A DNA stretch of 64,000 nt, taken from Squalus acanthias (taxonomy: Eukaryota). Positions 57,528 to 57,765 of this stretch are shown in pieces. Position 1 is the first letter of the stretch, and each line of letters begins with the position of its first letter. A program made the translations under genes and the position numbers. The stretch is taken from assembly GCA_030390025.1 (NCBI GenBank), contig CM059426.1, positions 60,078,001 to 60,142,000 of the forward strand, written 5' to 3'. The notes below the pieces were generated by a model. The model was given only the letters and a program-made list of their open reading frames with translations, was not told the DNA's origin and did no database searches.

Positions 57528-57765
57528 ATGAGAAGTCGCACAACACCAGGTTATAGTCCAACAGATTTATTTAAAATTACAAGCTTTCGGAGCTGTTGCC
57601 CCTTCCTCAGGTAGAGTTACTGTGACTCTCAGTAACTCTACCTGAGGAAGGGGCGACAGCTCCGAAAGCTTGTAATTTTAAATAAATCTGTTGGACTATA
57701 ACCTGGTGTTGTGCGACTTCTCATTTTTGTCCACCCCAGTCCAACGCCGGCATCTCCACATCATG
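57528..57765 (+). mobile_element. Miniature fold-back Penelope-like insertion, copy 3
   Basis: ~100-bp inverted arms centred on 57626 (2 mismatches); ~39-nt tail; 13-bp TSD ACCTTTAACATAA (57515-57527, 57766-57778). Confidence 0.9.
57639..57674 (+). ncRNA. Minimal type-I hammerhead ribozyme motif
   Basis: UAC-CUGAGGA-A-GGGGC(GACA)GCUCC-GAAA-GC-UU-GUA; stem I UAC/GUA versus CAC/GUG in copy 2. Confidence 0.78.

Follow-up and report, generated by a model that had tools for sequence, protein, structure and literature searches.

The motif at 57639..57674 is a real and conserved minimal hammerhead of the published kind, in a new host family. We regard it as probable that it belongs to the pseudo-LTR (pLTR) of a Penelope-like element (PLE) with a linker of the Neptune/Nematis type, that it likely self-cleaves weakly in intact tandem copies, and that the copies in the window (the whole 64-kb stretch of DNA analysed here) are inverted and truncated insertions, in which it is predicted to lie buried. 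Minimal hammerheads (min-HHR) in PLEs have already been published (PMC4209133), and the motif itself will not surprise a specialist. The family is useful material on in vivo cutting by PLE hammerheads: its copies are very numerous and include intact tandems, the U-A/U·G/C-G path can be seen among its many subfamilies, and in a second family the stems are fully swapped.

Hammerhead motifs and insertions in the window

The earlier note had described two motifs in this DNA and identified them as minimal hammerheads of the PLE kind. The identity was right; they are minimal type I hammerheads, and their extra A and AGCU palindrome match the published description (PMC4209133). The strings quoted for copy 3 (57639-57674) and copy 2 (45573-45610) both occur as given, and the predicted cuts lie, as stated, after 57671 and 45606. 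Both motifs are present, but the total is four, each locus having a second copy on the minus strand, which the core pattern places at 57585-57610 and at 45512-45537. The claim that copies 2 and 3 differ only at tolerated sites fails: copy 3 was quoted with a stem I of three base pairs, which drops the outer pair. At this pair copy 2 has U-A and copy 3 has C·A, a difference at -4, and pairing is therefore not kept at every difference. The features are as follows.

57639..57674, plus strand: copy 3, minimal type I hammerhead fold (sequence, structure descriptor, covariation alignment)
57639-41/57672-74, plus strand: stem I of copy 3
57642-48, plus strand: CUGAGGA of copy 3
57649, plus strand: extra A of copy 3
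57650-54/57659-63, plus strand: stem II of copy 3
57664-67, plus strand: GAAA of copy 3
57667-70, plus strand: AGCU palindrome of copy 3
after 57671, plus strand: predicted cut of copy 3
57578..57613, minus strand: second hammerhead fold, in the inverted arm of the copy-3 insertion (core pattern, descriptor)
57522..57730, no strand: inverted repeat of copy 3, two 5'-truncated pLTR ends head to head (104-nt arms, 1-nt spacer)
57731..57765, plus strand: PLE tail, on one arm only; in tandem copies it ends at the next ORF's ATG (57763-65)
57515..57527, plus strand: left target-site duplication (TSD) of copy 3, 13 nt, overlapping the element ends in part
57766..57778, plus strand: right TSD of copy 3
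45573..45610, plus strand: copy 2, minimal hammerhead fold of a different subfamily, predicted cut after 45606
45504..45541, minus strand: second hammerhead fold, in the inverted arm of the copy-2 insertion
45446..45709, no strand: whole copy-2 insertion (12-nt TSD 45446-57/45698-709; inverted arms 45455-45659; tail to 45700)
305..500, minus strand: third insertion of the PLE family, with a 12-nt TSD (fold-back element at about 315-491)

The palindrome arms are 97% complementary in copy 3 (57522-57625/57627-57730) and 99% complementary over 102 nt in copy 2 (45455-45556/45558-45659), where the minus arm has a G·U at a position that is A-U in the plus arm. According to the structure descriptor, cores and stems are intact in all four motifs. 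The third locus lacks the CUGANGA half because its fold-back point falls inside stem II. Copy 3 interrupts a host repeat, of which an uninterrupted paralogue lies at 53043-53140. Searches of the shark's own genome found near-identical copies of copy 2 and of copy 3 dispersed genome-wide, each with its own set, and the two hence represent two subfamilies. Between them, the region downstream of the hammerhead diverges less than the hammerhead itself.

A loose core pattern has 12 matches in the window against 5.8 expected, and four of these, two on the minus strand, are the motifs of the copy-2/copy-3 PLE family. Only 2 nt separate A15.1 from U16.1, too short for the helix III of the canonical Rfam type I hammerhead. 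The Rfam scan of the window returned no hammerhead at E<=5, only miRNA-type hairpins below the gathering score.

The copy-2 insertion sits between the 3' ends of two converging frames, a DDE_Tnp_4 (Harbinger-type) transposase frame at 45925-46920 on the minus strand and a coiled-coil-like frame at 44637-45458 on the plus strand. Related transposase fragments lie near 60446-60898.

The parent element

Upstream of the motif, many copies contain coding sequence for the end of an RT/endonuclease ORF; where copies are in tandem, the tail is followed by the start of the ORF. One intact unit (L122) has motifs at 1519 and 4563 and, between them, an ORF of 892 aa at 1640-4318. The predicted cut is 91 nt from the ATG, the stop codon 245 nt from the next motif and the two hammerheads 3,044 nt apart. 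The hammerheads of the intact element thus flank the ORF, i.e. they lie in the pLTRs, as in published min-HHR.

The ORF matches RVT_1 with 32.9 bits, above the Pfam cut-off, and contains YIDD, DKG and YIGET motifs with a C-x4-C-xx-C linker at residues 753-761. The Pfam scan of this ORF did not match the GIY-YIG domain; the YIGET motif is present and the homologues carry PF01541 (GIY-YIG). A single ORF with RT and, C-terminally, a GIY-YIG-type endonuclease is the organisation of EN+ PLEs. Its closest named proteins are from sharks (80-91% identity). A CX2-5CxxC linker between RT and EN marks Neptune and Nematis (PMC8557442), and by this linker the element appears to be of the Neptune/Nematis type.

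Genome-wide, 70,672 arms match a pattern of the inner stem I and core, and the reversed-pattern control matches none. The family is also present under six organism labels in eight of 18 public runs; all 18 consist of contigs, and most were only guessed to be RNA. A complex insertion (L121, G000:C8:113977001-113987000) has three hammerheads: an inverted 3' half comes first, and next to it stands a tandem copy with an internal deletion.

Conservation and covariation of the fold

A descriptor of structure alone, holding no sequence of the family, was applied to 1.034 Mb, made up of the window and 970 kb of genome stretches at fixed positions. It has 35 matches, whereas five first-order Markov controls have 0, 0, 1, 0 and 0. 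The hammerhead match is thus not due to chance. The extra nucleotide between 9 and 10.1 is present in all 35 matches, a palindromic 4-mer in 31. The sequence features of min-HHR are found: the core CUGANGA...GAAA...UH with helices I and II (helix I of copy 3 having just 3 bp), no helix III, and a palindrome, AGCU in this first family and ACGU in a second one.

This second PLE family accounts for 16 of the 35 matches. It is 26-37% identical to the first in amino acids, and its motifs also flank its ORF (L102). Relative to the first family the core is kept, while all four stem I pairs and four stem II pairs have changed and are still complementary. The lead to it was a loose pattern that itself had 144 matches against 401 in the control. 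The second family supports the structure more strongly than does the swap within the first.

That swap, C-G for U-A at the third pair of stem I, had been put forward as a compensatory change supporting function. It is real, and stepwise (U-A to U·G to C-G), but it is a single event and not replicated covariation. Seen in two copies alone it is weak evidence, because these copies are subfamilies that differ along a single compensatory path. The path is visible in a tree of the upstream sequence, made with the 64 of 175 unique arms that share at least 300 nt of it and with the hammerhead columns left out. The tree implies two changes and places the U·G rows, of which it contains only two, between the U-A and C-G groups, with supports for this ordering of 95/94, 95/94 and 99/92. 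Two rows with long branches are probably host flank.

The third pair is C-G in 69, U-A in 26, U·G in five and C·A in none of the first 100 of the 70,672 matches listed. Over all of them C·A occurs in 439 (0.6%) and U·G in 2,142 (3.0%). Mutation after insertion, at equal rates, would make these two counts similar. The U·G matches are mostly of one haplotype, often found on both arms of an insertion, and the dominance of this haplotype points to a wobble-bearing master lineage. Some C·A copies are also present on both arms of a single insertion, and such templates were therefore mobile.

To examine covariation we aligned 31 haplotypes: 25 of the 27 recurrent ones of the first family, five recurrent ones of the second and one further second-family copy. 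In this alignment pairing holds in 97.1% of the cells. Both sides vary in 9 of the 11 pairs, most of these changes being one split between the two families. Covariation scores 0.52, compared with 0.18 for shuffled and at most 0.07 for slid controls. The stems thus covary above controls, but through few independent events, one within and one between families. The invariance of the core in these haplotypes is partly built in, because the patterns that selected them required most core letters. N7 takes all four bases, loop II has 3-9 nt, H17 is U or C and stem II holds; G10.1-C11.1 is G-C in 25 of 25 aligned haplotypes of the first family, and 10 of the 31 haplotypes have a broken outer stem I pair. 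Taken as comparative evidence, the genome-wide counts and the covariation across families support the structure.

At two loci (G000:C11:62691957 and C14:86183547) A-U replaces G-C at the second position of stem II, and single-sided G·U forms of this haplotype occur among the 70,672 matching arms. This is a possible second stepwise compensation within the family.

Anatomy of the insertions and a proposed mechanism

Among 197 distinct arms, 170 of which came from motif-selected searches, 89 end 48-62 nt past the predicted cut, 83 end at 84-96 nt and most of the other 25 at 97-104 nt. Genomic 3' ends cluster at about 53-59 and 91-97 nt beyond the cut, and most copies read through it. Exactly one arm is tailed in 58 of 62 inverted pairs, and 53 of the 62 have a TSD of at least 7 nt. 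Tandem or inverted pLTRs and a tail are known for PLEs (PMC8557442, PMC11167929), and in Poseidon of Anolis reverse transcription has two internal start sites and both target strands are nicked and extended (PMC11167929).

By analogy with PMC4209133 and PMC11167929, pairing between the AGCU palindromes of two hammerheads would supply helix III, probably assisted by the element's protein, and the cut after CUU or CUC would release a unit-length RNA. Reverse transcription would start from two internal sites, and the RNA that it copies would for the most part be uncut, or re-ligated, at the 3' hammerhead. We infer this state of the template because the 3' ends lie past the cut and the cDNAs cross it. 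Two cDNAs primed on opposite target strands would join head to head, leaving a palindrome, one tail and a TSD. Contigs of the eight public runs contained no skip joint matching a splice from the cut site to an AG near the ATG; a short intron between the cut site and the ATG is thus unsupported.

Does the genome record cleavage?

Occasional copying of cut RNA should produce element sequence that starts at +1. Genome-wide, under a four-base mismatch filter, 294 arms start at +1 against 96 at +5 and 67 at -4, a test that overstates the effect, given microhomology joins at +1 and small insertions. By a hand count of the matches listed, 1-nt deletions account for about a third of the +5 control. 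Thirty +1 loci were inspected: several are solo insertions whose TSD lies at the junction, five are stem I microhomology joins and two have small insertions exactly at the site.

A profile with a single filter covers the first 100 of 1,388 matches, all on one contig; 97 are distinct and 88 were kept after dropping nine with internal indels. Starts at +1 number 14 of these 88 against 4.3 expected (P=1e-4), under a crude uniform null that ignores microhomology in fold-backs. Once four stem I microhomology joins are removed, 10 stand against 4.1 expected (P=0.008; taken over 13 positions, 0.11). There is an excess at +2 as well (14 against 7.9), in part from both arms of exact hairpins. We left out sub-totals for host and fold-back junctions, as the classifier labels fold-backs of other subfamilies as host. 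Scaled by the filter, we estimate that +1 junctions make up 1-2% of arms.

The excess of 5' junctions at the predicted cut is suggestive of a possible in vivo footprint. One might tentatively propose, as something more doubtful than probable, that cleavage by the hammerhead in vivo has left a record in the genome: cDNAs would, in a minority of cases, have stopped exactly at the 5'-OH end of cut RNA, giving about three times the junctions of neighbouring positions, and the reverse transcriptase would rarely have jumped the cut, leaving non-templated insertions. Were this true, the roughly 70,000 arms, with the second family as a replicate, would provide direct evidence of cutting by PLE minimal hammerheads in the course of retrotransposition. 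No pile-up of ends at the site was found in the contigs of the eight public runs; a single contig departs from the reference one base before the predicted cut, to which we give no weight. In Anolis, no RNA-seq ends are reported at the hammerhead site (PMC11167929).

Two otherwise intact copies, L246 (the same place as L292) and L251, carry insertions of 3 nt or 1 nt exactly at the predicted cut. These could reflect jumping of the reverse transcriptase across cut RNA, or chance.

Alternatively, the fold may be conserved in the parent element with negligible cleavage in vivo, persisting as a structure that binds protein or positions the template, or as a passenger. The cut site is read through in an estimated 98-99% of arms, and the predicted folding is weak (see below). 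Minimal PLE hammerheads show low activity in vitro (PMC4209133), hammerhead mutants of the Anolis element did not affect insertion in vitro (PMC11167929) and Naiad PLEs thrive without hammerheads (PMC8557442). Yet in two families sharing about 30% protein identity the catalytic letters, the extra A, a self-complementary 4-mer and the UH triplet are retained in register, and there is the modest excess of 5' junctions at +1. Moreover, the Anolis hammerhead cleaves with protein, and its core mutants lose activity (PMC11167929). On balance we consider negligible cleavage unlikely, and retain weak self-cleavage in intact tandem copies as the preferred reading.

Can the copies in the window fold and cut?

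The claim that the motif is functional does not hold for the window copies in place, if the folding predictions are right: they lie in near-perfect, inverted arms of long hairpins, where the hammerhead stems have probabilities near 0. The copy-3 insertion is predicted to fold as one hairpin of -187 kcal/mol, and the stem probabilities round to 0 whether the insertion is folded whole or as prefixes that stop just past the motif. The window copies are thus likely inert, their hammerhead predicted to be buried in a long hairpin. As the arms are on opposite strands, one transcript contains one sense hammerhead and its perfect antisense rather than a tandem dimer.

Folding is also weak out of this context. 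The isolated monomers reach the target fold with a probability of 0.03 for copy 3 and 0.11 for copy 2, and 56-nt monomers have uninformative folding z-scores of -0.3 to -1.5. Within the intact element, stem I has a probability of at most 0.02, and stem II one of 0.94 at the 5' copy and 0.08 at the 3' copy. The AGCU duplex contributes only -2.5 kcal/mol, and cofolding of two monomers did not return the AGCU dimer, which the model represents poorly. Such weak predicted folding would fit the low activity of min-HHR (PMC4209133) and the protein dependence seen in Anolis (PMC11167929).

One might still suppose that the window copies are themselves active, the two arms of an insertion, or copies 2 and 3, dimerising and cutting host transcripts. 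Cores and stems are intact in all four motifs, and a read-through transcript that started inside the palindrome, or unfolded it, would carry one free hammerhead. Against this stand the hairpin energy and the vanishing stem probabilities given above, the 12 kb between copies 2 and 3, and the loci themselves, which show only recent insertion and no sign of conservation, with near-identical copies scattered genome-wide. We therefore think activity of the window copies very improbable, and keep to their reading as truncated insertions that bury the motif.

A MITE or a miRNA-type hairpin with a chance hammerhead match, as the palindrome's near-perfect inverted arms with TSD and the Rfam miRNA-hairpin matches might suggest, is ruled out by the link to the PLE ORF and by the descriptor controls (35 matches against 0-1), and furthermore every Rfam match is below the gathering score, the fold-back point differs between copies, the arms reach RT/endonuclease coding sequence and the tail is on one arm.

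Comparison with known systems

The family shares with the min-HHR of metazoan PLEs (PMC4209133) the absence of helix III, the palindromic stretch (15.1-16.1/15.2-16.2), the extra nucleotide between 9 and 10.1, G10.1-C11.1, a short helix I, the presence in both pLTRs, the many solo copies and the pairs on opposite strands about 100-700 bp apart. It differs in its helices, with 5 bp in helix II and 3-4 bp in helix I. The 70,672 arms are well above the 4,000-9,000 copies of coelacanth and Xenopus (PMC4209133). In fishes, min-HHR have been reported in Xena, Poseidon and Neptune PLEs, and a search of two supplements of the same source found no shark term (PMC4209133).

Poseidon of Anolis carolinensis (PAc, PMC11167929) resembles the shark element in its two internal starts of reverse transcription separated by the tail, its AT-rich targets, the nicking and extension of both strands, a hammerhead of stems I and II only, and uncut RNA as the main template. 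In PAc the cut is 26 nt inside the ORF and reverse transcription starts 111-118 nt into it, whereas in the shark element the cut lies 91 nt upstream of the ATG, with which the outer 3' end coincides. The CX2-5CxxC linker is present here, in contrast with the Penelope/Poseidon clade, described as having none. With Neptune/Nematis EN+ PLEs (PMC8557442) the element has in common RT, this linker, a C-terminal GIY-YIG-type region, partial tandems, inverted 5'-truncated copies and a tail of 30-40 bp at one end. It differs in having clear TSDs of 10-13 nt at AT-rich sites, against the microsatellite targets of Neptune/Nematis (PMC8557442).

Animal non-LTR retrozymes also carry type I hammerheads, for which an origin in PLE pLTRs was proposed (bioRxiv 10.64898/2026.07.22.740005). 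They are non-coding units in head-to-tail tandem, whereas the window copies are inverted, dispersed truncations of an autonomous element and hence are not such retrozymes. That survey of hammerhead repeats sampled one chondrichthyan genome. We found no description of this shark PLE family, nor of genomic junctions at PLE hammerhead sites, in the open-access literature, and the family may already stand in supplements or in Repbase.

Further copies of the second family and a third variant

The second family is abundant, with copies at L102:2914-6145 and L070:2-2430. Decayed or truncated ends of it lie in the window at 6243-6345, 22895-22964 and 54472-54604. In the copy near 6243 both core and palindrome carry substitutions, and the sequence at 54472-54604 resembles a further inverted pair. 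Four loci (L191, L208, L214 and L217) carry a third hammerhead variant, related to that of the second family, with G10.1-C11.1 and A-U as the second stem II pair. This variant too is linked to PLE coding sequence and to inverted copies.
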